Positions 4,925 to 64,000 of a stretch of 64,000 bases of DNA are shown piece by piece. The stretch comes from Stegostoma tigrinum (lineage: Eukaryota), in the NCBI RefSeq assembly GCF_030684315.1, contig NC_081396.1, positions 1,674,001-1,738,000 of the forward strand. Reading direction: 5' to 3'. Made by a program: the position numbers and the translations under genes. The first letter of the stretch is position 1. The number at the start of each line of letters is the position of its first letter. The notes under the pieces were generated by a model, which did no database searches, was not told the DNA's origin, and worked only from the letters and a program-made list of their open reading frames with translations.

Positions 4925-4952
4925 GACGTTTCGGGCCTAGACCCTTCATCAG
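4925..4952 (-). ncRNA. Minimal hammerhead ribozyme (minus-strand copy)
   Basis: Reverse complement reads CTGATGA-AGGGTCTAGGCCC-GAAA-CGTC. Confidence 0.7.
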
Positions 4953-4974
4953 AGAGGTCGCTGATCATCTCTCT

Positions 4975-5002
4975 CTGATGAAGGGTCTAGGCCCGAAACG
5001 TC
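4975..5002 (+). ncRNA. Minimal hammerhead ribozyme (Penelope-type)
   Basis: CTGATGA core, stem II GGG..CCC, GAAA, very short stem III, GTC cleavage triplet. Confidence 0.7.
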
Positions 5003-5584
5003 AGCTTTTGTGTTCCTGAGATGCTGTTTGGCTTGCTGTGTTCACCCAGCTCCACACTTAGTTATCTTGGATTCTCCAGCATCTGCAGTTCCCATTATCA
5101 CTGACAATGATGTCAGTTGGTTCCCACTTCCTTTTTTTAAAGTGAATCTAAACTCCACCATCTGCCGTGATATGGTTTGAACCCATACCCCAGAACATTA
5201 CGTCCAAGTCGTATTCCATCCTATAAAGAGGATGACCAGGGTGCAGAATTAAGAGTTTCTGCATTTGACATCAAGCCAATATTGAAGGTCATCAAAGGTA
5301 TCTTGTCAAATTGAAGTCAATGTGAATCATGGGGTAACCTTTCGTTGGATCCATGTCATGATAAACACAAAAGGAAACAATTATTTGAGATAATTAATCG
5401 AAACTCCAACAAAACACAAAATAGAATATTGGTTGTTACATGCTCAACATTCTTCAGTTTACCAGAAGTGTGGTCAACAGTTGTCAGTCTCACAGCACAG
5501 CAAGCCGATGCAAAGAAGTGAGGTTATTTCATTAAATAGATATCCTCAAATATCTGACTCTCCTGCTGGAGAGCCGCGGAATCA

Positions 5585-6000
5585 ATGCAACTTCTTTGGC
5601 GTCTGTGATGTGTGAGTGTCACTTGTGATTCATAATTGGAGATCAAACTTCTCACGTTTTCCCCTCATTTCTAAGTCATGGTTTTATGCTCAAAATCCGT
5701 TGCTCAATCAGCTCTTGTTTTTCTCTTTTATTCAGAATCCAGTTATAGAGATTCTGTCATTTGGCTACTGTCCTCCGATGGTGGAAGAGGCGGTTAAACC
5801 ATGACTTGTACTTGTACACACGAAACTCCATTCAGGAGCTAAGTAATACACTGGTACAGACTCTATTTGAATGTACACCACAAGTTTATTTCATCGGGGA
5901 GTTCCTGGTATTCTGAAAATAAAGCATACTTGTCAAGAAACAAAGTCAATTCTCTGTATTTGTCAAACTCAGAGAGATGAAAACCAGCTTGAACATTGTC
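5585..6000 (+). pseudogene. TCR alpha/delta V pseudogene, 3' truncated
   Basis: Leader relic ATG at 5585 (MQLLWRL*). Acceptor ttcag|5736, then SSYRDSVIWLLSS..G*TMTCTCTHETPFRS*VIHWYRLY..KFI..SENKAY (V FR1-Cys, WYR, CDR2). In-frame stops; no YYC or RSS. Confidence 0.7.
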
Positions 6001-7097: not shown

Positions 7098-7324
7098 CAC
7101 AGACAATGGGAACTGCAGAAGCTGGAGAATCCAAGATAATAAAATGTGAAGCTGGATGAACACAGCAGGCCAAGCAGCATCTCATCAGCACAAAAGCTGA
7201 CGTTTCAGGCCTAGACCCTTCATCAGAAGCCCTGATGAAGGGTCTAGGCCCGAAACGTCAGCTTTTGTGCTCCTGAGATGCTGCTTGGCCTGCTGTGTTC
7301 ATCCAGCTTCACACTTTATTATCT
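7098..7324. mobile_element. Penelope-derived palindromic insertion with ~15-bp TSD
   Basis: Same family as 4860-5101. TSD TGGCTCAAAT(C/T)TTAA at 7083-7097 and 7325-7339. Hammerhead motifs at 7199-7226 (-) and 7232-7259 (+). Confidence 0.85.
7232..7259 (+). ncRNA. Minimal hammerhead ribozyme
   Basis: CTGATGAAGGGTCTAGGCCCGAAACGTC, identical to 4975-5002. Confidence 0.7.
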
Positions 7325-9059
7325 TGGCTCAAATTTTAAATTGGCGCCACCAGGTTCTGCGACTGTGTGAGTAGAATATGAAAACTGTCCTCCGTGTTTG
7401 AGCACATTGATGAACTCTGGAAAGCTTTTACTCAAAAAAATGCAGTTGGTCTCCTTTAAATTGCCATGTACAACCAGTACATTTGGAGCATTACTCCAGC
7501 ACCAATGTGGAAAGAAATAACAAGTATTAAAAAAAACGCCTGGTAACAGGTTGATGCGCTGGAGTACAAGATAATTGAATGTCATGATTCTGTTCCCGCA
7601 CTACGGCCCACCAATGCCCCAAGATCCACCTAACTGGTTGAATATATACATTTGCTTATCACTGACTTGGACCATATCAATATTATGAATCGTGGCGCTG
7701 AAGAAGCTCCCATTTACTTCTCAGCAATTTCCATTTATATTCTGTTGTATCTTATTCCATTACCTTATTATATGTATTACTGAATCAGACCATGTCATTT
7801 TTGGCAGAAGTATGCATTGCCTCTGTTAATCCAACACTTTATCCTGCTTACATTTGTGTTATATATAAGGAACTGTCTCCTGTATTTGTCAATTGGTCCA
7901 TACTTCAGTTTTTATATTTCAAGACTACTTCATACATGTATGAGCAATAAGAAAACTGAAATACCATAGAAGCTGAAGATCAAAATTGAGAATGGAATGT
8001 GTGACAGAAACTCAGGATTTCGAATGGCTTTGGCGGGGAGAAAATAGGTCAAATAGACAAGTACTCCGACAGAGAGGCATACTACAAATTGTGGTATAAA
8101 GTGTGGGAATAGAAGTTCTTATATTACCAAAAGCCAACACTGGATGGAGACAATCTCTAATTGATGTGCTGTTATCTTATTCAAATTAGTGTTAACCACA
8201 TGTTATGAACATTCTATTAATCTCTCAAATAAGTACTAAAACTGAAACACAGAACTAAAAGGAAATTATGAGCCACGTGATTTTGAAATACTTTGTAGTT
8301 TTATGGTGAAGTTTTCAATTTTCCTTTGTCTTCAACGTTCTAAAACCCCTATATTCAGCATTTATGATATGGTATACTGCATACGTATACAAATATGGTC
8401 ACATACGTAACCCTGAGGAGAAAGCACATCAGTCTTGAAAAGAAAATAAATCATGTAGGAAAGTATTCAGCTGCAGCAGAGCAAAGAGTCAGTTAATATT
8501 TCAGATCCATGCTTTACAAAATAATTTATTTGCACACATTTATGTGGTATATGTTATATCTTTCTGCCATCGTATCCAATTTAATACTTCATAATTGTTG
8601 TGATGCTTCAATGCATGGAGGGCAGTCTTCACGAACGAGATGCCCAGACAAAACAATCACATCAGAGAAGTAAGGATTGGTTTTAACGACGTCACCCTGA
8701 GATCACTGTTGACTCGGGAACTGGCAATATTTCCTGCTTTTCTGCTTGACAAATAAACCACAAGGCGATTTCTGCTTCATTGCAGATTTCAGATGCACTC
8801 ACCTCAGATCAACATCTCATCCATGAAGGTGGAATGACCGTGAGTGCAACATTTTTTTTTCCCCACACAAGGAACTGGGGACTATTCACCCGGAATGAGA
8901 TGCATTTCATCTTTGGATAGAAACACATACCCAAGGCTTAATGAATCGACTGTGAGAATTAAAATACCATGCAATGAATCGCTGGACAGAAGAGAAACAA
9001 TGGATAAAGAAGTGGCAAACACATCTTAGAAGGAAAGACGCATATGTTTTATTGTTCTT

Positions 9060-13861: not shown

Positions 13862-14325
13862 ATGGTTATCCTAATTCTCCTCACTCTGTGTGTCTGTTTA
13901 CCTCGTGAGTACCCATCAAGTAACCTAATATTGTGTTCATTTAATATAATGCTCCCTGAGTCCATGAAATAGCAGGCTCTGCCTCTGGTTTAGCCTTACC
14001 AGGTCGTTAGTATTTACAGACCATTCATGTCTTCCTGCTTGATTTGCAAAATCATTCTATCAGTTAATAGTATAGACCCCGGCAGCAGAGAACAGGGAAG
14101 AGTGTCAGTTTCTCACCATCAGCTGCATTTTCTAGGGTAACTTCTTTGCTCATCATCGAGAGGGAGATTTTCTTCAGACAAACACATCAAGAAGGGAATC
14201 GGAGAGAATTTCTGCAGGAGGGAGATTTGTTCTGAGGAAAAATGAAGCATAAAATATATTTTCATTGGAAATTCAGGACGTTAAAGTTGAAGATGCTGCC
14301 ACCTATTATCACCAAAGCTGGTTAA
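13862..14325 (+). pseudogene. NAR-TCR-type V pseudogene (orphan)
   Basis: Leader 13862-13904 MVILILLTLCVCLP+C|gtgagt. V relic ~14050-14325: LTISCIF..FRQT..ERISAGGRFVLRKNEA*NIFSLEIQDVKVEDAATYY-KA, an IgNAR/NAR-TCR-like FR3 with no conventional CDR2. Stops and frameshifts; no RSS found. Confidence 0.8.
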
Positions 14326-16559
14326 AGTTAAAAAGACAATGGGAAATTTACAGTGAATGAGAATGAAATAATTGCCTTGTGAAGTGAAAATATATCTTCT
14401 GCAGACCTATATTGTCGAAAGTTTTCAGTGATGTCCGGGCTCCAAATTAATTTAGTTGTATTTCCTCATACTGTTATGATTATATTATGTTTTGTTTCAA
14501 TTTCTTCAAATAAACTAACTTCAGCACATGTTGCGACATCTGCCTCAGATTTCAGAATGTAATGAACAAAATTTTGAGTTTGTGTGGTCTGTACATCTTG
14601 AAATCAGAATTATTGGTCTAAACGTCCCGACTAGCAAAGCAGGGCTGATGATCTGATGACATTTGCCCAACTGATTGTAAGACAGTTGTTTTTATATTAG
14701 GGCGACTGTGAATTGTGCCATTGTTTTGGAGGGCTGATACTTTGGATGGATGCAGGATGGTGGTGATGATCTAATTGGTAAGTAACTCCAAATCCCATTA
14801 ACAACTGACCAGGCAACTGTTGACTTTTTTAAAAAAAATATAGTCTGCATCTCTTCAGCTCCATTTAATCTAATCTAAAATGTTTTCTAAATACGATGTT
14901 AAATGCAATTTTCAATTTGAGAGCAGAATATGAAACTGGATTTTGGTCCGCATGAAATCTGATAGAAGAGAAGGGAAAACCCTTGAAAGTAGATTCAGTT
15001 GATCCCATTTGGATGGCCATTGATTAAAAGGCTAAAATGCAAATACACCGGCATTAGACTTTCTCATTTTTGTTCAATCTGTATTTTTTAATTAAACTCA
15101 GACTATCGAAATTTTAAATCCCACCTGGGTGTTAACTGCAGCATTCCTGTGAACACAGGAGTGTATTGAAGAAGTTGTCATTTGAAATAAAAGGTTTCTG
15201 ATTCTGAAATGTGAATGAAACACCAGAGAGGAACATGCAGTGATTGGTATGAGACCTGTAGCAGTAGAAATTCTGTAGAATGACACAGCAGGCTTCGTGG
15301 GCGACACATCCTTATTAAGTCCCGGTGGAGTTGCTTCATTGACTGAATGTACCTTTATTGTTTTTGGTGTTTCTTTCAGTTGTCTTAATGAAATTAATAA
15401 TTTTCCTTATTTTCCATTCTTTGATCGAGATGTAGAACTGCAGATATTCAGCAATGGCGAATTTTGCTTTTAGAGAAATATGTTAATGACAGTCTAGAAC
15501 ATGTAAAAGAGATTCAATGGATTGGAGTTTTTTTTTAAAATGTGAAAGTAAATGTTAAACTCCGATCGTCGTGAATTGTGCAAAGGTATTGAAATGAAGA
15601 CCTCTTCCGTTCTGAATTCACACGAATCTGCATCTTGAGATTATAAGTATTTACAATGCTGTGTGAAGAAATTGGGAAGGCAGGACATCAGTTGGAATAT
15701 TTGAACAGCCTGGGCCTATTTTCTCTCAAAATTCGAGCAGTACGAAGATGTTTCATAGAAATATTCTGCATCACGCTAAAATCTCAGTGGGATGCATATG
15801 GTTCCACGTGTGTGTCTGGAACAAAACCCAACTAAAATATGCAAAACTAGAAAACAAATGGAAATAGTCAAAGAGGTACATCTACAAAGAAATACACCAA
15901 AATGTGACGATGGCTGCCAGGTGGACTGGTTGGGAAAATTGTTTTAATGATGATGAGTTAGTTTCAAAATAGAAAGGAGAGAGAGGTATAACACGATTCA
16001 GATCTCAGGTATAAATATGCTAGTTAGTGTTCACGAGGGAGGAGGATATGTAAACTGCAAGAATGGACACAAGCAGTGGGGAAAAATATTCTGTTTCTGA
16101 TCTGCAGATTCTATAGGATGCAAACTTCAGAGAGCCTTTTGCCAGAAAATACGAGGAACAGTCAGTGCACATGGTGAGTTATTGAAATTTTCAGACATTC
16201 TGAAAATCAGCTTTCCAGTGACAGTAAGATCAACGTGAAAATTTCACTGACAGCTCACATTCACCAACGGAGCCACATTGGGTCCAATTTACATAAAATG
16301 TAAAAGTCAGAAGAACATGACAGATTTTATCGTTAAAATGAAATAATTTAGAGTTTGTCCTATAAAATGAAAGTTACTCAGTTGAAAGAAATGGACAAAT
16401 ATGTGGAAGTACTCTCTGAAGTTACCGTGTTTTTGAAATATAGCGCCATGTTGACATCAGTGCATAAAGTAACGTGAGAGGAAGAAGAGCCTGCAAAATA
16501 AAACATAAAGCGTCCTGGGTTTCACTTTAAAAAGGCGGGGGTTGGGGGAGTGCAAGATG

Positions 16560-17270
16560 TACGAAAACAAATAAGTTATGCCGAATATATAGGTTGGCGA
16601 GTTTCGAAACAACTGAAATCTGCAAGAAGTTCTGGATACTGTACCGTTTTATAAATGTGAAGGCATGTCAGAGAATGAAGAAAGAAGTATAAGAATGATT
16701 GCAGAGAACAAGGAGTTCAATGATGGAGTGAAAATGGGAACTCTCCAGCAGATGCTGGAGAGTCCAAGATAACAAAGTGTGGAGCTGGATGAACACTGCA
16801 GGCCAAGCAGCATCTCAGGAGCACAAAAGCTGACGTTTCGGGTCTAGACCCTCAATGATGGAGTCAGGTTAATGAGAATGGGACTATTTTACTCACAGAA
16901 GAGAACGTTGAGAAAAGACAGAATAGAGAGATTCAAAGTAATGAGGATTCTGGAAAGAAAAGGCAGATAGTACGCCTTTCCATTCGAAAAAAAAGAGTCA
17001 ACTGAAGTAGACAGATCAGAGTAATAAAGAAATGAGTCGAAGGCTATCTGGAGAGATAAATGTTGACAACGAGTGGATATGATCTGGAATATGCTTCCTG
17101 AGATTGCAGTTGAGGCAGATTACATTGAAACATACTAGAGGGAATTGGGTTATTATACAAGGATGAAGAATATGCAGGATTGCAGGGAGAATGTGCGGAA
17201 TAACAATCGTTGAATTCCTTCTTTCGAGGGGCAGCATACACACGTCAGGCCGAATGGCTTCCCTCTATGC
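16560..17270 (+). mobile_element. Degenerate CR1 3' fragment
   Basis: CR1-like 3' end ('gagggaattgggttatt..caggccgaatggcttccctctatgct'), interrupted by the 16730-16851 insertion. Confidence 0.55.
16730..16851 (-). mobile_element. Half copy of the Penelope-derived element, 13-bp TSD
   Basis: One arm of the 4860/7098 family. TSD TCAATGATGGAGT at 16717-16729 and 16852-16864. Confidence 0.8.
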
Positions 17271-29200: not shown

Positions 29201-29665
29201 ATGCTCTTCAAATTCAGCCTTTTAACTGCTCTCATCTACATGACATTCGGTAATATCTGTGTTTGTTTTATTAAAAAAACGTTTAAGAAACAGGTTTCTG
29301 AGAAATTCGTCGTTATGATCTGAATTATGCTTTTAATCTTTCAAATAGATTTGTCTCAGGAAGATACCGTGTCTCAGGCTTGGTCAGAAACAGCCTTGAA
29401 AGCAGGTCAAACCTTCACAACGCAATGCAGCTATTCAACAACACTAGACCGGTATGATCTGTACTGGTACCGAAAGTCTCCTGATGCTGCCCTGGAGATG
29501 GTAGTGTGGAGTAGTGCGAGTGGCAGTCGGGGAAAAGCAGAAAATATTGGGAATCGCTTCTCTTCCGAGTTAAACACAGCAACAAAAACATCTGTTTTAA
29601 TGATCACTGCTCTTCAGTTGAGCGATTCAGCATTGTATATTTGTGGCTTCGCTCAATCAGTTTGA
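29201..29665 (+). CDS. TCR alpha/delta V segment (leader 29201-29249, V exon 29349-29665)
   Basis: MLFKFSLLTALIYMTF|gt..99 nt..ag|DLSQEDTVSQ..QCSYSTT..LYWYRK..RFSSEL..LQLSDSALYICGF. Both canonical Cys and Trp present; followed by an RSS. Confidence 0.9.
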
Positions 29666-29704
29666 CACTGTGGTGTAACCCAGTACTGCTCTCATACAAA
29701 AACT
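29666..29704 (+). other. 23-RSS
   Basis: CACTGTG + 23 nt + ACAAAAACT. Confidence 0.92.
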
Positions 29705-30760: not shown

Positions 30761-31950
30761 ATGAATCAGTGATTTTTTTTGTTTGTTTCTTGGACTACGT
30801 AGGATAGTTGCACAATTTAGATGATTATCAACGATCGTACTAAATTTGGAAAAAGATTTGAAAGTTCGATTGACCTCCCATGCTCACAGTTTTCATGTTT
30901 GTTTGAGATCAACTCTGACATCTTAACTACCTGAAATATAGGTGATCAGTTGCAAAAATACCGATATGAAATGTTTGAACTGGCATGGACTCTTTTTTCA
31001 TAGACACATGGAAACAAGTGGCGACTTCATAGAAATATTTCCAGTTACTAACTGACTCCATGAGCTGGATGTGGAGACATTTTCTTTCGAGCATGAGTCT
31101 AAAGTGAAATCACTCGCAGTGCAGAGCATAGGAGGAAGAGTATTTTTCTGGAAAGAAATGGAACTCATTGAGATGTGGAGTGAATGAAGGAGAAGCATGT
31201 TGAAGGAAGAAAGGAGTAGATACATAACCCTGAAGCCAATAGTTCACTGTAAATAGATTGGATCTAGTGGAATGGAAACATGTCTTTCCAAGTTAGAGAC
31301 CGCTAAGTATCCCAAATCCGAAAATTGGTTTTAATATGAAATTCAGTCAAATATACGGTCAGTTAACACAGGAGACAATTAGCCGATGGGTTCCAGGCAA
31401 CTAAATTTTTTCAGACATGCGGAACAGGCAGTTCCCAGCGAGTAACAGTAAAACCACAGGGGAAGCTGCACAATCGGGACAGATGTGAACCGTTAAGATA
31501 TGTTCCCACAATGATCACACCACAAGCAATGCAAAGTAAGTGTTGCAATAAAATTAAACTTCATATGAAAATTGAAATGAATATAAAATCAAAAAATGAC
31601 AAGGAAAGGGTCAAATAGAATGAAGGATAAGTAAGAGTTCCCGTGATGTCTAAAACTGACATAAAAGTTTTACAATGTATATTTGGTGTCTCTAACCCTA
31701 TAATTTCTATTTGATTTTCTCTATGGACAGAGATTGTTTACCCTCAGAAATGCGTTTTTTTCTGAAACTTTGGTGTCCCTTGTTGATGTTAGAAATCTTA
31801 TTTAGCTTTATCTTTCTACAAAGAAAGTAGACATATAAATTTCTAATCATAGAATCGGGCAACACGGGGGAGTTTTGTTGCACAAGTTCCCACTTCTGGA
31901 AGGCATTAGTTTGCTGCTTGCCCATAAATTCACATACTTTACGTGCTCAG

Positions 31951-32130
31951 AGATAATAGGAACTGCAGATGCTGGAGAATCCGACATAACAAGGGTGGAG
32001 TTGGATGAACACAGCAGGCCAAGCAGCATCTTAAGAGCAGGAAGGCGGCTGTTTCTGGCCTAGTCTTTTCTGATGAAACGTCAGGCCTGAAATGTCAACC
32101 TTTCTGCTCCTAAGCTGCCGCTTGGCTCCT
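31951..32130. mobile_element. Older copy of the Penelope-derived palindrome
   Basis: 'gataataggaactgcagatgctggagaatcc..ggatgaacacagcaggccaagcagcatc..ctgatgaa..gaaatgtc'. Confidence 0.7.
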
Positions 32131-32475
32131 TTACTTGACGTGTCGCATTGTTTATCAAACGAAAGACTGAAATTTGTTGTTGAATCCACATACACCTATG
32201 TAAAATGTAACAGACTGCATCCCTCACTGAATCATGTTACAATAACGAGGTTGTAAATTGCAAGTTGGGTCAATCAGTAAGGTTACTGAAATAATCTTGA
32301 GGTGAATGCGTTCCCTCCATAAAATGTGAACAGACAATTTCAGGAAGAAAATGTACATTCAGTTTGCTAGTGCCCCAGAGTCCACCAATCCAAAACTTTA
32401 TAGTCAGGCTTTGTACTCCCTTTTGAGCTCTCTCCAGGCTCTATATGAACGTATCTGTAATCCTCACCATGTACA

Positions 32476-32514
32476 AGTGTTTGTACAGATACGTCCATGC
32501 TCCGTATCACTGTG
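32476..32514 (-). other. 23-RSS of the supporting V-delta pseudogene
   Basis: Minus strand CACAGTG + 23 nt (atacggagcatggacgtatctgt) + ACAAACACT. Confidence 0.9.
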
Positions 32515-32820
32515 TGTACTGAACTCAACTCGGCGCACAGTAACTCACGGCAGAGTCAATCTGCTGTAGTTTATACCTCCTTAACTCGCTGATTTTTGCA
32601 ACAGGATCGATGGATGCAGACAACCTTACTTTGACATCACATTCATTATTCTCCTTTGCTGAAGTGTACTTCTGAAGCAGGTATTCAGAGTCTGATCTGG
32701 CGACTGACTGTACCTCTAAAGATCACACTGACAGAACCCTGAATATTCGCAGGTTAAGTTACATTTCAGTGACACTGGAGATCTTAAAAGCTGGACTCTG
32801 TGACACCTTGGAACAAGAAT
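32515..32820 (-). pseudogene. NAR-TCR supporting V-delta (STCR-delta V) pseudogene
   Basis: Acceptor cccacag|. DSCSKVSQSPAFK..LTCEYSGFCQ (extra CDR1 Cys)..SQSPDQT..YLLQKYTSAKENN..RLSASIDPVAKISEL..DSAVSYCA. No leader found upstream; frameshifts and stops. Confidence 0.85.
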
Positions 32821-33679
32821 CTGTGGGATAAAAAGAAATCTGTTTAGCAATGTCATATCTAGAAAACTTGTCATTGGTGTAAACGGCTGTCATTTTAAGG
32901 CATATCTCCTCATTTAGAGCAGGTTTCAAATATCTTCTGTAGAAGCAAGAAAAAAAAAACAACGTGGAGATGTTGGGATTTTTTTTTCTCTCTGTGAAAA
33001 GAGAAAGCAAATTACTCTGTTCAGGATCAAATGCCAGAATAGACTGTGGAAGAAGATGACCGAAGAGTATTTCTCAATTGGAAATTGAGAGCATGTTATG
33101 AAACTTTAAATATTATGGGATTAGGTGAAAATGAAATTTTAAAAAGCGTTCTCAATTTTAAAATACCTTGGGTAACCCATGGGTAATATCTGTTGAATAT
33201 CTGCAAACGTATTGCTTTGTAAAACACACATATTGGAAATATTTGAACAATTAATTCTCTTTCACTGAGATAATCCATTCCAGAATTAGTTGATGGAGAG
33301 AAACACCGTTGCATGTGCATATGTCTTTATTCATTTTGGAGATCTAGACACCACTGTGCAAATGTGCGCTCATTGCCCATACCTAGTTTCCCTTCAATGC
33401 GTGATGGTGAGTTGTTTACTTTAACTAATGCTGTTCATTTTGTGCTAGTCCGTCCGAAGTGCCGTTAGACAGTCATTCCCAGGATTTGATTCCGTGTCAA
33501 TGGAAGTAAGGGTCATACTTCATGTCAGGATGGTGGCCTCCTTGGAGAGGAACTTGCACTTAGTAGTTCTCCCATGTATACACTACATTTATTGTATCAC
33601 AGCCCTCATAAAGATTCAACTGAGTGAAAATTGATTCAAGGTGACAGAGGTCAAACATTCATGGAATAGAATAATAGAA

Positions 33680-34000
33680 AGATCACTGAGCAGAAGTCAA
33701 GAAGATCCGCCATCTATGTGCTGACTCTCTGAAGGAGTAAGTCACCGTTGTGGACTAACCAAAGCCTTGTACAGTTCCAAAGTAACCTCCCAACTTTTAT
33801 AAACTATTTCAAGATTAATTAAAACAAGTGTATTGTATGCTTTCTTAACCAAACTTTTAATTGATCTTTCTGCCCTTAGGGACCTGTAAACAAGCATCCC
33901 AAGATACCGATGTTCCTCTCAACTCCTTAGCGTCCTGCTATTCTTGCAGATTCCATTGTCTTGTTACTTCTTCTAAACTGCATCACCTTACGTTAAAAAC
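33680..34000 (-). mobile_element. Degenerate CR1 fragment
   Basis: 'ttgtacagttccaaagtaacctcccaactttt..gtattgtatgctttcttaacc' resembles the CR1 RT C-terminal region. Confidence 0.5.
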
Positions 34001-34601
34001 AAAATCGCGGAATGTGGGTGCTGCTGAAAAAAAATATTTCGAGTCCATAACTATTTGCCCAAATTCCAGAAAAGAGACAAACACATTCCTCTGTGCCCGG
34101 AGTCACAAGTGGACTAGACCATGTTAGGATGGCATATTCTGCTCCCTTAAATAGCATTATCAGTTTTAGACTCCATCTGCCACTGATCTGCCGATTTGAC
34201 TGAGTCGTCGATATTTTCCTGTACCTTAAGGCCTTCTGCCTCTCTACGAGTGACCCAGGCACTAATAACTGTGGTGAGTTACTGGACACCTGCTTTGACT
34301 CACACAGATAATCTCCTATTACCACATTCCGTCTGTTACCAAACAAACAAGGATCCAAGTAGACAAGCTACCCCGGATGCCATGTGCTTTCTCTGTCTTT
34401 GTCAGTCTACCGTGTTGGAGTCAGGTTTCCTTTGATTTCCTCGCACATTTGCCATTGAAGATTGGAATTCAACTCAGCCATTCCTTAAATTTCCTCCTTG
34501 ACGTCCCACAACAAGATTGAAATGACACAGGTCTCAAAAATATACTGACAGTGAATATTAATTGAGAACATCTGAAAAATGGAGCATTTGGAGTCATTCA
34601 T

Positions 34602-34688
34602 CTGTCGTGACAGACGCCAGGATCCCAGGTCCATCCACAATATCATATTACAAACGCCGTGACACTGCTCTCAGTCACCACAGACACG
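34602..34688 (-). pseudogene. NAR-TCR J pseudogene (34602-34660) with degenerate 12-RSS (34661-34688)
   Basis: YDIVDGPGILASVTT followed by a dead donor (at instead of gt). + strand GACACTG + 12 nt + ACAGACACG. Lies between the D and the supporting V. Confidence 0.55.
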
Positions 34689-35034
34689 AACTACTGGTAG
34701 TTTAATCTGCTAGACATATGTTACAAAACATTTGGTTCTGCTTGTAATTATTGGGAGGATTTCTAACAATTAAGAACATTCAAATTTTCTCAGATTCTTT
34801 TGGTTCAAACTGTTATTTATGAGACTCTGAAATAGTAACAAATGGGCACAGGAAATCAGTTGATGAGCACTTCACGGAAAGGTGCAGAAATATCATAGAG
34901 CGGTAACAGGAATAAAAGGGAATTGAGGGAAAATGTACCAAGTACATAGAAAATAATGAATACATTTTACATTCCGGGATGGCGACCAGTATTTTTATTT
35001 TCAGTTCCACTGTGGTATTTATTCAGAACCCAAC

Positions 35035-35086
35035 CACTGTGGAATCCCGAAAATTAAACACAGTGTTTCAAATTAACAGTAAAATC
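35035..35086 (-). other. D segment (core 35042-35058) between two perfect heptamers
   Basis: + strand CACTGTG-gaatcccgaaaattaaa-CACAGTG + 12 nt + AGTAAAATC. The J-side nonamer is degenerate. Confidence 0.75.
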
Positions 35087-35405
35087 TCAGATACTAGTGA
35101 GCTATATAGACAATAATTATACCATGTAGATCATGTCTTCATGTCCTGGCCCTGAGAATTGGGTCCCAATTGGTCTTCCGAACTCCTAATTGTGTTCATC
35201 ATTCCCAACCTTTACAGGCTCCAGTTACAAAAAAAAAGCATCAACAAACTTAACATGTTTGAAATTTTAGATGTTAACACCAATAATAACGTATCTTTGG
35301 AAATTGTAATTTGAAGGAAGGTATGTTGAGATGCATAACTAAGCGTTTTGTAATGATTGAAATAATTGTACTTCTCTGATTCATTCTGTAAAAATCTGCA
35401 GCGTT

Positions 35406-35913
35406 AGGTTCTGTTTTGCACAATGTATTGGCCCATCACTTTGGCTGCTGTAGTGTTAATATGCTTTACAGTAATACATGGTGGTGCCTTCAATTATTAG
35501 TCCCCACATCTGCAGTGAAACTGTCTTTTCTTTTTATTCTTCCTCACAACAAATCTCCCTCCACTGGAAATCTGTTCGCTATCTGTCAAAATCGAGACCT
35601 GTCTGAGGAGATATGCATCTTGCAAATAATGGCCCAGTTGTGACCATAATAAACACAGGAGATGATGACAGACTGACACACTGTCCTGGTCACCATTGTC
35701 GGTGTTTTTGTTACTCACTGAAATTAAACACAGGGAGTTTAATATACTGTCAGAGCAACAGCACAAAATCAAACAGTGTTAGCCCAGTGCCTATGTTCAC
35801 AAATGGCATGGTGGTGGGCAACATTTCATTGAATCAAAGCAATGTCCGTTTATTCTGTTGGTACTCACGGGGTATCCGGATGCCCAGGGTGAAAATAGCA
35901 AAAAAAATCCCAT
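35406..35913 (-). pseudogene. NAR-TCR V pseudogene (leader 35913-35869, V 35717-35444, degenerate RSS 35443-35406)
   Basis: Leader ATG..CCC|gtgagt, frameshifted in a T-run. V: VTKTPTMVTRTVCQSVIISCVY..EQISSGGRFVVRKNK..TVSLQMWGLIIEGTTMYYCKA. RSS CAAAGTG + 22 nt + ACAGAACCT. Confidence 0.82.
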
Positions 35914-39700: not shown

Positions 39701-41218
39701 ATTGGACATGCCTCATGTTAAATTAGGCAACAAGGATTTTTTTTCAAAAACTGGGACGAATTGCTGAGTCACTTTTCATCCAAAAAGCTGAAAACCGTTA
39801 CTGCAGTCACATGGCAGTGTGTGAGGGAAAAAGTCTGGTATTGATAATTTAATTATGCATGACGGAGAGAAAGGGAATATGTTTGAATTAAACAACATCC
39901 TTATAGACATAACCCTACAAAGTTGGGAGAGGTCCAAAAAGATATTGAGATCATATTCAAAGACAACATAATCGAAGTCACTTGCAGGAAATGAAGATCA
40001 CTATAACAATGGTGCCAAAACCGTCTAGTATCCAATAATTTTGTGTAGACTACCGCACATTCAATGCAGTTACAAAATCTGATTGATATCCCATTCCAAG
40101 TTTGGAAGATAACAAAGTGTGAAACTGGATGAACACAGCAGGCCAAGCAGCATCTTAGGAGCACAAAGCTGACGTTTAGGGCCTAGACCCTTCATCAGAG
40201 TGGGGGATGGGGAGAGGATTCTGAAATAAACAGGGAGAGAGAGGGAGGCGGACCAAAGATGTTTTTTTTCACTTTTTTTGAGAAGATGGGGCAAGTAACT
40301 TGCAGTTCTAAGTTGGACTACCTCGGAGGACATTTATTATCGTGAACATTCAATTTGAAAATTGTTCACTTGGCAAAATGGGATGATATAATTACTGATG
40401 AGTTATTATGACTGTACTGGAGGAAGAGGGATACTTTCAAAAGCAGGAAAAATGTATTGAAGTGGACTGTTGCAGTGAATATTTCCATGTTTAGCGTCAA
40501 TGTAATATATGTCTATTGCAGTGTACAAATAGCATTGGACTAAAGGGGTTTAAAATAAAGTCTTTTTAAAGTTCTTATTCATAACCACTGCCTTACTTTC
40601 TCTTTGTATTTAAAGGTGTGACAATACGATGAGTTTAAGTTGTATATTTTGTCCTTTTTGTTGTTCAGGGAATGGTTTTAAGACAGGTGGTGTCTATTGA
40701 AAACACATAAAGTAAACATATTGTGAGACCTTTTTTTCTAATGTTTGAAGGACAGAAACAACCTGATGAATATGGTCAACCTCTCACAGAACAAGAGTTT
40801 TTTTTTAGTTTCTTCTTCTTTTTTATACTGCGGAGGCCTTGAGTTTTCTTGATGACTGGTTTAAACTTTGGATTCTCTTTGTGCTTCTAGACTTGCATTT
40901 GAGACAATCCATTTTCCAAATTTCCTTTTTCCAATTGTGTGATTATGCTAAATTGGAAAAAGTTATTAGTCATAGCTAATAATCTAAAGTTCTAGTAACT
41001 TTTCCAATTCAGTTAAGTTGCTCAAATTTCTCCTCCCTTTTGTTTTATTGCAACTAATGTGGTTAAATAAAGTGTCCATTGCTTTAAATCAAATAGTTTT
41101 ACAAATTAACTTGAATCTGGAATGAAACGCCAACAATTGCCCTTAAAATAAGAAAAAAGTGTCAGCGTATGGGCTCTCAACTAAATAAATTTTCAGGTGT
41201 CTGCTCTGGTCCATAGCA
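36790..41218 (+). mobile_element. Gypsy (Gmr1-like) LTR retrotransposon remnant
   Basis: LTRs TGTGACAA..CA at 36790-37410 and 40617-41218; PBS-like sequence at 37411. Gag relic (FEKLAK..MKWP..EAYRQCFR), integrase C-terminus (PFELVY.HQV.G.L; SGP) near 39.2-39.6 kb, then RT start (IKQHPYR, VPKP, CVDYR, YPIP) at 39.9-40.1 kb. Confidence 0.8.
40107..40262 (-). mobile_element. Penelope-family terminal fragment nested in the Gypsy RT
   Basis: Same arm as 4860, continuing into 'gggggatggggagaggattctgaaataa'. Confidence 0.75.
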
Positions 41219-50124: not shown

Positions 50125-50575
50125 ATGCTAGTTCTGAAACTTACAGTAATAGTTGGTGACCTCTTTTGCACTGACATCCAGAACATTCAGGGCAAATCTA
50201 TTTTGCAATCTATTCGTCGACACAAAAATCTCTGTAGAGAGACCCTCTTCCAATCCATTGAAGTCTACGCTTGATTGACAGAATCTTCACTTTTTATCAA
50301 GCTATAACCTTAACTATGCTGGTGATGAGAAGACTTTTATACTCGCTCTTGGTCTTGTAGGTCCTGTGTCACTCACTGATTGAAGAACCTGGAGATTAAA
50401 CAGAGAGAGTTTTATAAACCAGAAGGGAAACACAAAACAGGGTTATGCACCAAACTGTCGCTGTATTTCAGATAAACTCGGGCAGCGCAATGTTAAATCC
50501 ACACAATTTTGGTTTCTGTGATCAGTACTCACAGGCTAAATATACACAGAGAATGAAAACAAAGTGAGTTCCCAT
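50125..50575 (-). pseudogene. NAR-TCR V pseudogene 2 (leader 50575-50533, V 50388-~50125)
   Basis: Leader MGTHFVFILCVYLA+T|gtgagt (43 nt, like 13862). Acceptor 'ctgtttaatctccag' resembles the one at 35718-35737. Ends QNRFALNVLDVSAKEVTNYYCK. Confidence 0.75.
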
Positions 50576-53379: not shown

Positions 53380-53687
53380 CGGCGATGGGAAAAGATAAAG
53401 TAACTAAACTTCCTCACTGATGATTGCTAGCAAAGCAGGTATCCTATCTGCGAACTGCACTTGTAATATGGTGTGTTGGCACAGACAGCTCCTAAATCAG
53501 TCAGAGCAATTTCTGGTGATACCAGTAACAGAGGTTTACCAACATGAGAGAATCACAGCTTCAATCAATGGAGATTACAAATTCAGCTCCCTGACTGTGC
53601 AAAAAGCCAGAATTACTGACACTGCTACCTATCTCTGTGCCACGCGGACACAGCATTACAAAGAGCTGGAGAATGCGTACAAATACC
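53380..53687 (+). pseudogene. TCR V pseudogene with 23-RSS (53649-53687)
   Basis: cacag|..AMGKDKVTK, frameshift, ..NCT..WHRQLLNQSEQF..ERITASINGDYKFSSLTVQKARITDTATYLCATR. RSS CACAGCA + 23 nt + ACAAATACC. Confidence 0.8.
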
Positions 53688-55344
53688 TCCACAAAGTTGG
53701 AGTTGAGCGATGTTAGTTTTGAGCATTAGTCTTATTAATTCACAGTTCTAAAACTGGAGTTTTTAAGGGAATTAGGTCAAAATACAACAGGAAATAAGGA
53801 AAGGCATAATTCGGCTGCAGTCTGAAATGAAGAAAATTCGAAACGTGGGCAGAGAGGAAGGAGCAGTATACATACAAGCTGGAAGAAAAAATAAAAAAGA
53901 AAGGAACTGGAGAAATGCGACAACAATATTCGCTGAGAATGGAATGGTGATAAACCATTGCAGGAGAAGGGAGGCAGGTGACAGCATTGTGGTATTATCG
54001 CTGGAATATTAATGGTGAGATAATTTCTGGGACCCCAGTTCAAATGTGAAAATAGTTGAAAAATTTTTTATATTTCTGGAATTAACCATTAATCTATCAC
54101 CGATTGCCAGGTGGAAAAACATCTAGTCAATGAACACTCTTTACCGAAAGAAACTACCATCCTTAAACATGGTTTGAGCTACACGTGCCTCCAGAACCAT
54201 CGCAATGTGATTGGCTCTTCACTGTCAATTATTATTGGGCGATAAATGCGATATAAACGCTATATAAAATCAGTCCTAGTAGCTTCATCCCATAATGGAC
54301 TTTTTTTTGAAGGACGCAAGTGAAATATAACAAACATAATGCATCAAGGATAAGGATCATGTTAAATTATGAATGAATGAAATGTAAAGGAAGTATAGTG
54401 TCATTTCCCGGAACATTGCTAGTATTTCATTAATGGGCTCTGTCAAATTGCCTTGAAAACAATTGCAAAAACATAAACTTTGATATTACCACATTGATAT
54501 ATTTACCATTTTCCAGTGATGCAAAATTCCAAGCAATCCCATAATGTGATCCTGAAGTCCTAGTCACAGAAAATACCAATATATTTCTCTTTCTGTCATC
54601 GTTTTGAGTCGGTATCACCACTTTCCTTACCACGGCATTGTGTCATCTGTAAACATGACAGTAGTGCATTTATTTCCGTTTAGGTTTGGATTAGCAACAC
54701 TGTGCGTCTCTACTCTTTCCCCATTCACAATCAGTATTGGAGCAAGACCGTAAAAACAAGTACTTTATTCCTTTAAAGTGCCAATTTATGTTTTATGGGC
54801 GCCCTTGGCATTCGTCTCTAATAGTCCTTCATGTTAAAACGCTTAATATGTACTTTAAATGCTATAGTGTATCTGGAATAGATAAAGGAATCATATTTAC
54901 TATGATGCCGAGTCAAGGTAAACGCATACTGTTTCTATGAACCTTACGAGGAATTAAAGCAAAAGAAAAATTCTATCTACTGTTTGAATCCTTGAAAATG
55001 TGATTGTATATTTTCCTCATCACATTAATCAATTCCCTCAGACACGTTGAATCTCTGCACCGGCAACACGGTGCCCTCATGGTTTGAGAGCAGTTTTTTT
55101 AAACAAGGGAACGCAGATCTGATACTGGAAAAACATAAACTGTTCACCTCCTCTGGATTTCATTGTTTAATGAAAATAAATGATAAATGTGAAAGTTTAG
55201 TTTATTCTCAGTTGAAAAGCCCTTTGGCAGCGAATTAATTCAGTTTGTTTCATTCTCTCCATGGCCATGATATGAAGTGGACCTCAGAGCTTGAAGTTGA
55301 TTGGTTGAATTGAAGAACAAAAGATCTTGAAGTGCATTGACTAT

Positions 55345-55360
55345 CACCTGACGTCTATTC
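55345..55360 (+). promoter_or_regulatory. Candidate CRE-like/E-box V promoter element (CACCTGACGTCT)
   Basis: About 130 bp upstream of the leader ATG; retained at ~61689-61700 in the duplicate. Confidence 0.3.
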
Positions 55361-55477
55361 TAACAAGTACCAATGAACAGAGATGCGGAAATTACTCAAC
55401 CTCTTCCCAAATCTTGACGAACATACTTGTAGCTTCACCCATATCTAATTTATATTCATCGTGATCTCTCTGCAAGC

Positions 55478-56326
55478 ATGGTGCCTGAAGATCTGTATTT
55501 ATTCCTCAATGCTGCAGTTCTTCTAACCGGTAGGTTCACAACTAGACTATTTTTTGTGCCTCAGTGCTTTACCAGGAATTACATTTACACCAGCAATTTG
55601 ATCAACTCAGAGGCAGCAAAATCCTTTAGACTGAAATTTGTCCCAAAATCGAGCACAGTCTGGGATAAATAAGCAGTTGATGACAGAAGTATAAGGTTTG
55701 AAATCCAGAGAGGACTGAAAATGAGATCATTCAACAGAGGAAGGAATCTTAAACTCCAGCGACCATTTCAATATTCAAGATTTTGAAAATGAAATGAAAA
55801 GTTATCTCATCAAAAGGTATGGCCTGCAAAGTAATAGAAGTTTGCTTCAACCTGCCGAGGCTCTTCCAGGTCAAAGTCACTGATTTGTATGAAATTAGCT
55901 GGTGTTTTAGCTTCCCTGACTTATTTCTCTGGCTATTGTTCAAAGTGAATGGAATAATTCCAGGCAGTAAGAATCTTGTAGTAACTTATGTTATGTCTTG
56001 TTATTCTTGGCTCTTACAGGACTTTGTCGAGGCGATTCTGTCTCACAAACGCCGTTTGTAATCACAGTGACTGAGAGAGATGATGTCCAGTTGTTTTGTA
56101 ATTACAATGCTACAACAAGCAACGATCCTAACCTGTTCTGGTACCGTCAGAAAGCCAATGGACCAATGGAGTATCTGTTACAGAGAAGCCAATATATCAG
56201 GAACACGGAAAGATTTCCAGGAGATCGGCTTTCCTCGGATTTTGACCACGTGAACCGTATTATCCAGCTGAAAGTGCTGAAAACAGAGCTGGCAGACTCG
56301 GCTTTGTATTACTGTGCTCTGAGACC
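55478..56326 (+). CDS. TCR alpha/delta V segment (leader 55478-55529, V exon 56020-56326)
   Basis: MVPEDLYLFLNAAVLLT|gtagg..ttacag|GLCRGDSVSQTP..LFCNY..LFWYRQ..ELADSALYYCALR; open frame. Confidence 0.92.
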
Positions 56327-56365
56327 CACAGAGACTCAGGACAAAAGTAACTGTGCACAAAAACG
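56327..56365 (+). other. 23-RSS
   Basis: CACAGAG + 23 nt + ACAAAAACG. Confidence 0.9.
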
Positions 56366-58098
56366 TCAGAATGTAACAGAACATGTAAATGAGTCAGGCA
56401 AGTAGTGAGATCAAAAATAGATCATAATACATGACGATATTCAATAGTTTTAATCGAAAATATAGCACTTTGTTATAAATATGTCATTGAAATGAACAAC
56501 TGTCAGTTTAGTGAGTGAAAAGTATATGTATAGATATTTAAAGGTGTCCCACATTCATGTATTTCACTTTGGCAGCAATGAGTTGGCGTAGAAATGCAGC
56601 AACCAGCTTGGTCCTGCAAAATCCTCCAATGAAACAGAGAATTTCAAAACTCAGAGGCAATGATTTGTCGTGGGTTTCTAATAATGAAACACTAGGACAA
56701 CCTGAATATGTCAAACAGAATGTATTTCATTGAGCAACTTATTTTCTTATATTTCTGATTTTGTAGGGAAAACACTGTTCTGCTGAACTTTTTAAAACCT
56801 ATTTCTTTCGTTACTACTCATGTAAATATGACCTTGTATCGCAGTATTTTGTACCTCTGATGTTGCCGTGGAGATATTGTACATTTTTGACTGTACTCGC
56901 CTTACCCTGTACTGGCGTACACCTGACAATAAAGGCTATATTTAAATGCTAAGAAGTCCAGTATAGCTGGTGATAGATTCACTGCTCCCAGGTAATGGAG
57001 ACTTGTTTTACAATATCAATTAGAAAGTTAATACTCACATTGAAAAATATGAACCAAGTGAAGAGGTTCAGTTGTGCATGCTTAATGGATGACAGCTGGC
57101 CGTGAAAGTTTCAGTCACGCGAATTTTGTGCTGATAGTAACAGAAACTCAGAAGCTTAGCTCTGGACACCAGCTTAAAGAGAAGAAAAATAGAAGTGGCT
57201 AAATGTTAAAGTAAACTGACAGTAAGTGTCACATCCATTCACCATGAAAATAAATTGAAATTCCAGCAGATAATAACGTATTATTTTCCTTATGCTGGCT
57301 CATGGCCTTGTTTGGAAAACCTGTGAAAATCTTCCCTCATTCTGTTGCCTCCTCTGATTGGATCAAATCAGTTTGCTGCTGGTTATATTGAAAAGATACT
57401 TTAGGCTTGGCTTCACTGTTGTCCTCTTTCTGTTATATTGATTCTGCGTCATTCTTTGCATCATGTTTTATTATTTTCATTACTTACCATGGACAGTTTT
57501 ATGTTTTCCCCCATGGCATACTAGGAAACTAATATCGCAACAAGATGTATTATTATCTGTAAATTTCCACAAATCAAATATTAGCCTAGATTTCAGTGTC
57601 AGCTGGAATTATTGCTCACGTATTTATTATTTCATAAAACATGTTAGTGACATTGCTATAATGTGGAGTTTATTTCAGATTGATGTGGACAGATATGTGG
57701 ATTTTCAGGGAAATCAGAGGCTGAGAGATAGCACAGGAAGGTGGTTGAGAGTTGGATCAGTATCATCGCATTCAGTGGAGGAGCAGGGTCGAACTGCCAT
57801 TCGGAGCCGTTCAACTTTTCCTTATTGTGATCTTGTGACCAGCTCTTTTACATTTTACATACTCTTTTGCATTGGGCACCACTTCCGGACAAAATGAATA
57901 TATGATTCAACAATGAAGCTAAAATAATTGAGCTTCAGTCAACTCAAAATAATTATTAGCTCTGAACTGTAACTAAAATAGTTTCTGCACTTATTTTATG
58001 TGCATAGATCATAATTTCTCTAAAGGACTAGTCATCACTTCCTTTTGGAGTTTTCGAGCTTTAGTGTTGCAGGCATAGAATTGTAATACAAAATTAGC

Positions 58099-59996: not shown

Positions 59997-60035
59997 CACA
60001 GAATTACAAAGAGCTGGAGAATCCGTACAAATAAC
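59997..60035 (+). other. 23-RSS (duplicate of 53649)
   Basis: CACAGAA + ttacaaagagctggagaatccgt + ACAAATAAC. Confidence 0.8.
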
Positions 60036-61820
60036 TCCACAAAGTTGGAGTTGAAGGTAGGTTTGAATATCACGGTTATTAATTCACAGCTCCAAAACCG
60101 GAGTTTTTAAGGGAATTAGGTGAAAATACAACGGGAAATAAGGAAAGGCATAATTCGAATGCAGTCTGAAATGAAGAAAATTCGAAATGTGGGCAGAGAG
60201 GAAGTAACAGTATACATATAAGCTGGAAGAAAAGATGAAAAGAAAGGAACTGGAGAAATGCCATAACAATATTCACTGAGGATGGAATGGTGATAAACCA
60301 TTGCAGGAGAAGGGAGACAGGTGACAGTCTTGTGGTATTATCGCTGGAATATTAATGCAGCAATATTTTCTTGGACCACAGTTCAACTGTGAAAGTAGTT
60401 GAAATTTTAAAAAAAGTCGGGAATTAACCATTAATGTATCACCGATTGCCAGGGGGAGAAACGTCTAGTCCACTAACACTCTTTATGGAAAGAAACTACA
60501 TTCCTTATTCATAGTTTGGGCTACATGTGTCACCAGGACCACCGCAATGTGGTGTTCTCATGACTGTCAATTACGATTGGGCCATAAATACTGTATAAAT
60601 GTTACATAAAATATGTCCAATTAGCTTCATTCCATAATAGACCTTTTTTTGAAGGAAGGAAGTGAAGAATAACAAGCATGATGCATCAAGGATAAGGATC
60701 AGGTTAAATTATGCATGACTGAAATATGAAGGAAGTATAGTGTAATTTCCCTGAACATCGCTAGTATTTCATTAATGGGCTCTGTCAAATTGTCTCGAAA
60801 ACAATTGCAAAAACATAAACTTTGATATTACCACATTGATATATTTATCATTTTCCAGTGATGCAAAGTTCCAAGCGATCACATAATGTGATCAGGAAGC
60901 CCTATTCACATAAAATGTCTGTATATTTCTCTTTCAGTCATCTTTGTGAGTCATTATCACCCACTTTCCTTACCATGGTATTGTGTCATCTGTAAACATG
61001 ACAGTAGTGTATTTATTTCCGTTTGGATTTGGAGTAGTAATACTGTGTCTCTCTACTCTTTCGCCATTCACAATCAGTATTGGAGCAAGACCGTAAAAAC
61101 AAGTACTTTATTCCTTTAAAGTACCAATTTATGCTTTATGGGCGCCCTTGGCATTCGTCTCTAATAGTTCTTCTTAATAAAACGGTTAATATGTACTTTA
61201 AACTCTATAATGCATCTGGAATGGATAAATGAGTCATATCTCCAATGATGCAGAGCAAAGGCAAACGCATTCTGTTGCTATGGCCTTTAAGAGGAATTGC
61301 AGCAAAAAAAAATCATATTTACTCTCTGATTCCTTGAGAATGGGATTGTGTATTTTCCTCATCACTTTAATCAAGTCCCTCAGACATGCTGAATCCTCGC
61401 AACGGCCACACAGTGCCCTCATGGTTCGAGAGCTGTTTGTTAATGAGGGAACTGCAATTCGGACACTGGAAAAACATGAACTGTTTACCTCCTTTGGATT
61501 CCATTGTTTAATGAAAATAAATGATAAATGTGAAAGTTTCGTTTATTCTCAGTTGAAAAGCCCTTTGGCAGCGAATTAATTCAGTTTGTTTCATTCTCCC
61601 CATGGCCTTGATATGAAGTGAACCTCAAAGGAGCTTGAAGTTGTTTGGTTGAATTGAAGAACAAAAGATCTTGAAGTACATTGACTATCACCTGACGTCT
61701 ATTCTAACACGTACCAATGAACAGAGATGCGGAAATTACACAACCTCTTCCCAACTCTTGATAAACATATTTGTAGCTTCACCCTATTCTGTTTACATTC
61801 GTCGTGATCTCTCTGCAAGC

Positions 61821-62684
61821 ATGTTGCCTGAAGCTCTATATTTATTCCTCAATGCTGCAGTTCTTTTAACCGGTAGGTTCACAACTTGTGTATATTTTTG
61901 TGCTTCAGTGCTTTACTAGGAATTACAGTCACACCAGCTGTTCGATCAACTCAGAGGCAGCAAAACCCTCCCAATCTAAATTCGTCCCGAAATCGAGCAC
62001 AGGTTGGGAAAAATAAGCAAACATCTCCGAGTGGGTGATGGCAGAAATATAAGGTGTGAAATCCAGCGAGGATTGAAACTGAGCTGATTCGGCAGAGGAT
62101 TGAATCTTAAACTCCAGTGATCAATTCAATATGCAAGATTTTAATGGTGAAATGGGAAATTATCTCATCAAAACGTATGGCCTGCAAATTAACAGACGTT
62201 TGCTTCAGTCTGTCGATGCTCTTCCAGGTCAAAGCCACTGATTTGTATGAAATTAACTGGTGTATAAGATTCCCTGACTTACTTCTCCGGCTATTGTTCA
62301 AAGTGAATGGATTAATTCCGGGCGGTAAGAATCTTAAAGTGACTTATTTTATGGCTTGTTATTCTTGGCTCTTACAGGACTTTGTCGAGGCGAATCTGTC
62401 TCACAAACACCGTTTGTAATCACCGTGACTGAGGGAGATGATGTCCAGTTGTTTTGTAATTACACTGCTACAGCAAGCGACGATCCCAACCTGTTCTGGT
62501 ACCGTCAGAAAACCAGCGGATCGATGGAGTATCTGTTACAGAGAAGCCGATATATCAGAAACATGGAAAGATTTCCAGGAGATCGGCTTTCCTCGGATTT
62601 TGACCATGCGAACCGCATTATCCAGCTGAAAGTGCTGAAAACAGAACTGACCGACTCTGCAGTGTATTACTGTGCTTTGAGACC
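61821..62684 (+). CDS. TCR alpha/delta V segment (leader 61821-61872, V exon 62378-62684), paralog of 55478
   Basis: MLPEALYLFLNAAVLLT|gtagg..ttacag|GLCRGESVSQTP..WYRQ..DSAVYYCALR; about 13 aa differ from its paralog in the V exon. Confidence 0.92.
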
Positions 62685-62723
62685 CACAGAGGCTCAGGAC
62701 AAAAGTAACGCTGTACAAAAAAT
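62685..62723 (+). other. 23-RSS
   Basis: CACAGAG + 23 nt + ACAAAAAAT. Confidence 0.88.
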
Positions 62724-64000
62724 GTCAGAACGTAACAGAACATGTAAATGTGTCAGGCAACCAGTGAGATCAGAAATAGATCAAAATACATGATGGTATT
62801 CAATAATTTTACTAGAAAATATAGCTTTTTGTTATAAAAATGTCATTTAAATGAACAACTGTCAGTTTAATGAATGAAACATATCGTGTTTTTTTTTGTT
62901 TTTAAGGAGTCCCAAAGTCACGTATTTCACTTTGGCAGCAATGAGTTGGCATAGAAATGCAGCAAATAACTTTGGTCCAGCAAAATCCTCCAGTGAAACA
63001 GAGAATTTCAAAACTCAGTTCAAGAGGCAATGATTTGTCGTAGTTTTCTAATAATGAAACACTAGGACAACCTGAATAAAGTCAAACACAATGTGTTTCA
63101 TTGAGCAACTTATTTTCTTATATTTCCGCTTTTGTAACGAAAACATTGTTGTGCTGAACTTTTTTAAACCTATTGCTAACATTTCTACTAACATAAATAC
63201 GAATTTGTTTCGAGGTATTTTGTACTTTTGATGTTTCTGTATGTGGTGATAATGTACATTTTTGACTCTACTCTTCTGGCCCTGTACTAGTGTACGCCTG
63301 ACAATAAAACCTAAATTTAAATGCTAACAAGCCCAGGAGAGCTGGTGATAGATTCACTGCTCCCAGGTAATGGACACATGTTTTATAATATCAGTAAGAA
63401 AGCTAGTACTCACATTGAAAAATACTAAACAAGTGAAAAGATTCAGTTGTATATGATTACTGGATGACAGCTGGCAGTGAAAGTTTCAGTCACACGAATT
63501 TTGTGCTGATAGTAACAGAAACTCAGTCGCTTAGTTTTGGTCACAAGTTGAAAGAAACAAGATAGCAGTGACCAAATATTAAACTAAAGTGACACTAAGT
63601 AAGAATCATATTCATTCACCGTGAAAATAAATTGAAATTCCTGCAGACAATAACTTTTTTTTTCTTTTGCTGTATTATGGCCTTGATTGGAAAAGCAAGA
63701 AAATCCTCCCTCATTCTGTTGCCTCCTCTGATTGGATAAAATCTGTTAGCTTCTGGCTCTATCGAAACCGTATTTTATGCTTAGCTGCCCTATTGCCCTC
63801 TTTCTTTCATATTGATTCTGCATCATTCTTTGTATCAAGTTTAATTATTTTCATTATTTACCCTGGACAGTTTTTTTTCCCATGTTATACTCGGAAACCT
63901 ATATGGAAACAAGATGTATTATTGTTTGTAAACTTCCACAAATCAAATATTAGCCTAGATTTCAGTGTCAAGCTGGAATTATTTCTCCGTTTGTTATGGT

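Follow-up and report, generated by a model that had tools for sequence, protein, structure and literature searches.

The NAR-TCR, a doubly rearranging TCR delta of cartilaginous fish, was reportedly described by Criscitiello et al. in 2006. A NAR-type V is also found in IgNAR clusters (V-D-D-D-J-C), which have three D segments and an Ig-type RSS order inside the V-D-J unit. The live NAR-TCR joins V1, D and J within its unit, and its supporting V is joined to D-delta/J-delta (PMC1845163, PMC5931798, PMC6795676, PMC12227049). PMC1845163 gives as marks of V1 a leader, an a-b loop Cys and the lack of the WYRK Trp, and as marks of the supporting V the lack of a leader and a conserved CDR1 Cys. For the great white shark, Table S1 of PMC12227049 lists several NARTCR models of about 4-5 kb that are scattered, in either orientation, between TCR alpha/delta V genes; one of them is flagged as possibly pseudo. 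The TCR mu of marsupials and monotremes, whose V domains are VH-related, is a convergent system. One supplement of the elephant shark genome paper PMC3964593 has no NAR-TCR text; its other supplements may describe NAR-TCR cassettes.

Here we describe positions 35913-32476, minus strand, of a 64-kb stretch of DNA, the whole of which we call the window. We are highly confident that this segment is a NAR-TCR cassette turned pseudogene, situated in the V region of a TCR alpha/delta locus of an elasmobranch. It is one more dead copy of an already described gene type, since NAR-TCR and apparently pseudogenic cassettes were known before. The cassette runs in the order leader, NAR-type V1, RSS, 12/12-flanked D, J with RSS, a 1.8-kb intron and supporting V-delta with RSS (Table 1). 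A preliminary description had put all parts in order on the minus strand within 3.4 kb, and each was located where it had been placed. Its anatomy, homology, lesions and the splice phase between J and supporting V are direct observations.

Table 1. Parts of the cassette and of two further NAR-TCR relics in the window
Feature	Positions	Strand	Details
Leader exon of NAR-TCR V1	35869..35913	-	45 nt, frameshifted; donor GTGAGT intact
NAR-type V1 pseudo-exon	35444..35717	-	51/86 identity to first V of P0058
V1 RSS, 23 class	35406..35443	-	heptamer CAAAGTG (third base mutated), 22 spacer, nonamer ACAGAACCT; score 14 of 20.5
5' 12-RSS of D	35059..35086	-	exact heptamer; score 17.5
D segment	35042..35058	-	17 nt, between exact facing heptamers
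3' 12-RSS of D	35014..35041	-	exact heptamer, nonamer ATAAATACC; score 18, best 12-RSS of the window
Tandem 12-class RSS directly behind 3' RSS of D	34988..35014	-	exact heptamer, 11 spacer; score 16
J RSS, 23 class	34655..34692	-	nonamer AGTTCGTGT, 22 spacer, heptamer CACGGCG (degenerate)
NAR-TCR J pseudo-segment	34602..34654	-	YDIVDGPGILASVTT; in-frame stop 34650; splice donor GT changed to AT
High-copy repeat fragments, J-to-supporting-V intron	33450..34300	.	summed depth <=1858 vs 19.9
Leaderless supporting V-delta pseudo-exon	32515..32820	-	51/99 identity to second V of P0027
23-RSS of supporting V	32476..32514	-	exact heptamer, 23 spacer, nonamer ACAAACACT (2 mismatches); score 18
Decayed second RSS unit	32406..32453	-	61 nt behind first supporting-V RSS; 24/44 identity to unit 1
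Relic B	50575-47400	-	second, more decayed NAR-TCR relic: leader, V1, J, supporting V
Relic B leader	at 50575	-	43 nt
Relic B V1		-	very decayed; 31/84 to P0031
Relic B J	near 49690-49600	-	RSS with 23 spacer
Relic B supporting V	47750-47441	-	45/97 to P0027; degenerate 23-RSS
Relic C	13862-14790	+	third, more decayed NAR-TCR relic: leader, V1, J
Relic C leader	at 13862	+	43 nt, intact-looking
Relic C V1	14055-14312	+	stops present; 50/86 to P0007
Relic C J	near 14730-14780	+	23-spacer RSS, donor GTAAGT

The cassette is like the NAR-TCR of PMC1845163, PMC6795676 and PMC12227049 in its leader, its NAR-type V1, its own D and J, its leaderless second V and its position in a mixture of NAR-TCR units and TCR alpha/delta V of both orientations, and at 3.4 kb it is similar in size to the great white NARTCR models of Table S1 of PMC12227049 (3.8-5.1 kb). 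All the marks given in PMC1845163 are present. It differs from the described NAR-TCR in that all coding parts are disabled. A comparable annotation is that of great white LOC121270257 ('NARTCR NARV-TCRdV, pseudo??', Table S1 of PMC12227049), likewise on the minus strand and among TCR alpha/delta V. With TCR mu it shares the three-domain chain and the extra N-terminal V on a supporting V (PMC3457774).

RSS scoring used our own simple weighting of the RSS consensus. The two 12-RSS of the D, with 12-nt spacers, are two of the three 12-class sites that score 17 or more among 127,910 positions, and the facing pair of exact heptamers is the only one in 64 kb (3 of 200 shuffles yield one). A second D near 35230-35190 was considered and dropped, as no convincing heptamer is there. 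The V1 RSS position agrees with the read-through THSDG in P0002. The J near 34600 is the window's top J match with the frameshift-aware aligner (score 51, next 37). Its RSS, which alone falls below the scoring threshold, was read from the sequence and located by aligning it with the corresponding sites of relics B and C, where the spacers are 23 nt. The resulting order, 23 / 12-D-12 / 23 and then 23 at the supporting V, satisfies the 12/23 rule. The geometry had been called mostly 12/23-compatible, and the compatibility stands; what needed refining were the V1 and J sites, which have spacers of 22 and heptamers that are mutated (V1) or degenerate (J).

Since the D 12-RSS pair and the 23-RSS of the supporting V score near the top of all RSS in the window, the cassette might be proteinless yet a RAG substrate or decoy, in which the D and the supporting V could still be cut and joined. 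We think this rather unlikely: with three mismatches in their 35 bases, the heptamers are not evidently better preserved than the cassette in general, and this count therefore gives no sign of selection on the RSS.

For the V domains we assembled reference proteins. A search with P0007 residues 1-226 returned 71 proteins, almost all of them shark or ray models with two tandem V domains; domain profiles were made from 62 two-V proteins, and 13 were dropped (partial, single-V, triple-V or unrelated). These references bear the NAR-TCR label on the strength of their domain layout and of Table S1 of PMC12227049, none being source-labelled as NAR-TCR cDNA. P0028 (LOC121270138) is hand-annotated in that table as NARTCRdV, and the top single-domain PDB matches of the first domain of P0058 are VNARs. 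The models P0017 (great white LOC121270133) and P0004 have two consecutive NAR-type V and then a supporting V, and Table S1 of PMC12227049 labels P0017 V(gj)V(gi)V. Frameshift-aware identity alignments tried 19 references. The score comparisons included seven conventional V controls, with IgNAR V outside the set, and the trees had 40 rows, made up of 34 of the 62 references together with sequences from the window and controls, also without IgNAR V.

The frameshift-aware alignment gave best matches for both V to two-V shark proteins of NAR-TCR type, at the identities of Table 1, and bore out the reading of the layout as that of the cartilaginous fish NAR-TCR. V1 scored 100-254 against the first domains of all 62 references, 27-64 against the second domains, 31-49 against the conventional controls and at most 35 in 100 shuffles; its identity to P0060 was 49/87. 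It has an a-b loop Cys at 35678, where VCQS aligns with ECQS of the reference, and lacks the Trp of the WYR position, AYLLRQ being aligned with GYFLRQ. The motifs SGGRFVVRKN, YYCKA and CEYSGFC, reported earlier, were seen in the six-frame translation. In the tree, where the bootstrap is not fully settled, V1 falls in a starred clade of six (96/93) with carpet-shark proteins that include P0058 and P0060 and have the CDR1 YYGHNW in common. P0058 (XP_048380429.1, Stegostoma tigrinum) and P0060 (XP_048475027.1, Rhincodon typus) belong to the same V1 subfamily and are nearest in both trees; these two-V gene models are open reading frames, while the copy in the cassette is broken.

A NAR-type V followed by D and J could also be a decayed IgNAR V-D-J cluster that adjoins an unrelated V-delta by chance. 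The 23 / 12-D-12 / 23 order resembles that of Ig-heavy genes, and such an Ig-heavy-like pattern would suit an IgNAR cluster. The 41-aa open middle of V1 matched six PDB chains, all six VNARs (E 0.13-1.4), and the IgNAR and TCR alpha/delta loci are linked, according to PMC12227049. The same 41-aa fragment, however, reached at most 15.5 bits against VNAR and up to 37.9 bits against NAR-TCR-type V1, and V1 has the a-b loop Cys and lacks the Trp. The cassette has a single clear D, and a V-delta follows its J; the scan for constant exons used a TCR-delta C query. The J and the second V find their matches in the same set of two-V proteins, and the trees place both V near the same cassette lineage. 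We consider a chance neighbour of this kind very improbable. V1 appears to be of the NAR type and closest to NAR-TCR V1, as judged from sequence, with IgNAR compared over that one 41-aa fragment.

The supporting V was scored in the same way and reached 131-217 against the second domains of all 62 references, 24-38 against the first domains, 22-102 against the conventional controls and at most 41 in 100 shuffles. Its longest open piece (54 aa) found 11 proteins at E <=0.001 in an index-free search: eight with a supporting-type V, from sharks where named, one pufferfish V and two unrelated repeat proteins. When one frame of the supporting V was used in a word-indexed protein search, there were no matches among 70 and 2 candidates; the proteins came out in the index-free search. 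In the tree this V stands beside the second domains of P0058, P0060 and P0011 (93/67, not starred). Its phase-1 acceptor is intact, and the motif CEYSGFC carries the CDR1 Cys.

One might still take the second V for a conventional V-alpha/delta gene that has lost its leader, as genes of that kind are found close by and reach scores of up to 102 with it. We give this very little credence beside the score of 217 against a supporting V and the CDR1 Cys motif. The leader itself was sought upstream of 32820: of eight candidate exons in 34598-32822 none is both phase-1 and hydrophobic. The four phase-1 candidates have a hydrophobicity of at most 1.24, against 2.4-3.5 in genuine leaders; only the candidate at 34383 is hydrophobic, and it is in phase 2 and lies 1.5 kb away from the supporting V. 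The second V is thus leaderless in the window, as in the NAR-TCR.

Leader, V, J and supporting V had all been described as disabled, and stops, frameshifts and the loss of the J donor were found; the V1 heptamer is mutated as well. The leader has a 2-nt excess over the 43 nt (phase 1) of the paralogous leaders at 50575 and 13862; it is homologous to them and frameshifted by +2, so the leader mark of NAR-TCR is present. About 14-15 nt are lost from the 5' end of exon 2 of V1, and the spliced leader therefore runs into a TGA at 35717, the first exon-2 codon. V1 has a further stop at 35458 and frameshifts near 35633 and 35532. In the supporting V there are frameshifts near 32764 and 32688, a stop at 32527, and a stop at 32718 in place of the conserved Trp. 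Against the open frames of P0058 and P0060 we count at least 10 disabling changes. The cassette cannot make protein. It had been said to be mostly invisible in the ORF track, and this is because neither V reaches a Pfam family in any single frame (0 of 6 frames of V1 and supporting V). Nor were Ig-family matches obtained for the four broken V of this cassette and relic B together (Pfam, 0 of 12 single frames).

Contigs from three runs, X1, X3 and X4, which represent one study and at most two samples, span the cassette. They differ from it at 12 substituted positions and by a single base deleted in an intron, and no difference falls on a lesion; a second close copy of the coding parts was not seen in these contigs at 85% likeness. 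A bisulfite run, X5, contributed three reads only. Every lesion is kept in the contigs of another haplotype, which excludes assembly error. That the lesions are assembly or sequencing errors in a functional cassette is hardly credible, even though the leader frameshift lies within a T run and only 0.88 of the sampled words matched the best runs, given the unchanged lesions and the long tree end branches (0.67 for V1 and 0.72 for the supporting V, against medians of 0.12-0.14). These branch lengths argue for a long decay of the cassette.

The end of J and the start of the supporting V are both phase 1, and the G|AT junction gives an Asp that is present in homologs. In a functional cassette, V1 (23-RSS), D (12/12) and J (23-class RSS) would be assembled by RAG within the unit, and the leaderless supporting V (23-RSS) would be joined separately to a distant D-delta/J-delta. 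Splicing of leader to V1DJ to supporting V to C-delta would then produce a delta chain of three domains, two of them V, with an extra antibody-like tip. We infer the two rearrangements, the distant D, J and C-delta outside the window and the interdomain disulfide from the known NAR-TCR system. C-delta was not found in the 64-kb window by a frameshift-aware scan with a TCR-delta C query (best score 42). The repeat fragments in the intron before the supporting V gave no Pfam match in six frames.

The window holds three NAR-TCR relics and no intact cassette. A D was not detected in relic B by the RSS scan of the window; in relic C no D was found, and no supporting V was found downstream. At one and the same FR1 codon the cassette and relic B both have a TGA (at 35717 and at about 50374 on the minus strand). 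We rejected a duplication of the two after death as unsupported, because their V identity (66.8%) is not above that of the cassette and relic C (68.9%) and they are ungrouped in the trees.

The plus strand also carries conventional V-alpha/delta genes, at 29.2-29.7, 53.4, 56.0 and 62.4 kb, and V relics, at 5.7 and 59.9 kb; Table S1 of PMC12227049 shows the same mixture of NAR-TCR and conventional V for the great white shark. The gene at 29201-29704 (+), which faces the cassette, looks intact, with a phase-1 leader, an open V exon (Pfam V-set 2.4e-11) and a 23-RSS. The V at 53.4 kb is broken, that at 56.0 kb has an ambiguous leader donor, that at 62.4 kb has a stop in its likely leader, and the V at 59.9 kb is a remnant; 5750-5953 (+) is a decayed V-like remnant (16.8 bits against the local V profile). 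The segments 53649-57617 and 59997-63987 (+) form a 4-kb tandem duplication with 86% identity, in which each unit starts with a V RSS and holds a V gene. A dispersed repeat family occurs at 4858-5099, 7098-7327, 16727-16852, 31947-32126 and 40106-40203; it includes two inverted pairs (palindromes of about 200 bp, 4858-5069 and 7131-7327) and mimics a 22-spacer RSS.

The supporting-V RSS appears to be repeated in tandem, and similarly so in related sharks and rays. In the cassette one intact and one decayed unit are retained. The 24/44 identity at offset 61 was reached by 0.1% of 3000 random positions, and the match at that offset is 17/28 for the supporting V against 4-9/28 for six other V-type RSS tested. 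In the references we used read-through tails of shark and sawfish proteins (18 in total, of which six were too short and 12 were scored). The back-translated tail of P0009 has five near-perfect 23-RSS at offsets 19, 80, 141, 202 and 263, and that of P0065 has two at offsets 23 and 84. A heptamer with at most two mismatches fits at +61 in 11 of the 12 tails, and by a stricter site test nine have a second site between +58 and +63 (shuffle rates 0.05-0.27 per tail); for these counts back-translation is lenient, and five of the tails are paralogs from one species. In several tails the nonamers of the second units are poor or unseen. Tandem units of about 61 bp are seen behind the supporting V in the tails of P0009, P0065, P0046 and P0061 and are apparently common to sharks and sawfish. 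In P0011, P0040 and P0054, which look like rearranged chains, the junctions retain no RSS; it seems, then, that productive joints are made at the first unit.

No second unit was seen behind the supporting V of relic B, TRF did not detect a 61-bp repeat, and in metagenome contigs searched for related loci protein alignment confirmed 0 of 240 pattern matches, with the two-unit RSS pattern found in none. The accessible portions of PMC1845163, PMC6795676 and PMC12227049 do not mention tandem RSS behind D or supporting V. A search of titles and the starts of abstracts found no published mention of tandem or multiple RSS in shark TCR, but absence from print is not thereby established, because the primary NAR-TCR papers were outside its scope. 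It is a tentative and somewhat doubtful proposal that shark and batoid supporting V carry functional, undescribed tandem 23-RSS arrays of about 61 bp that are absent from ordinary V. Such an array might raise RAG capture at the supporting V or permit repeated joining, and the second rearrangement could then keep pace with the first.

The cassette is useful for locus annotation and for birth-and-death counts, and it shows cleanly how the RSS are ordered in the germline (23 / 12-D-12 / 23, then 23); otherwise it adds little. Should the tandem RSS behind the supporting V prove to be conserved and functional, it would have a bearing on the question of how two V(D)J events are coordinated on one allele.
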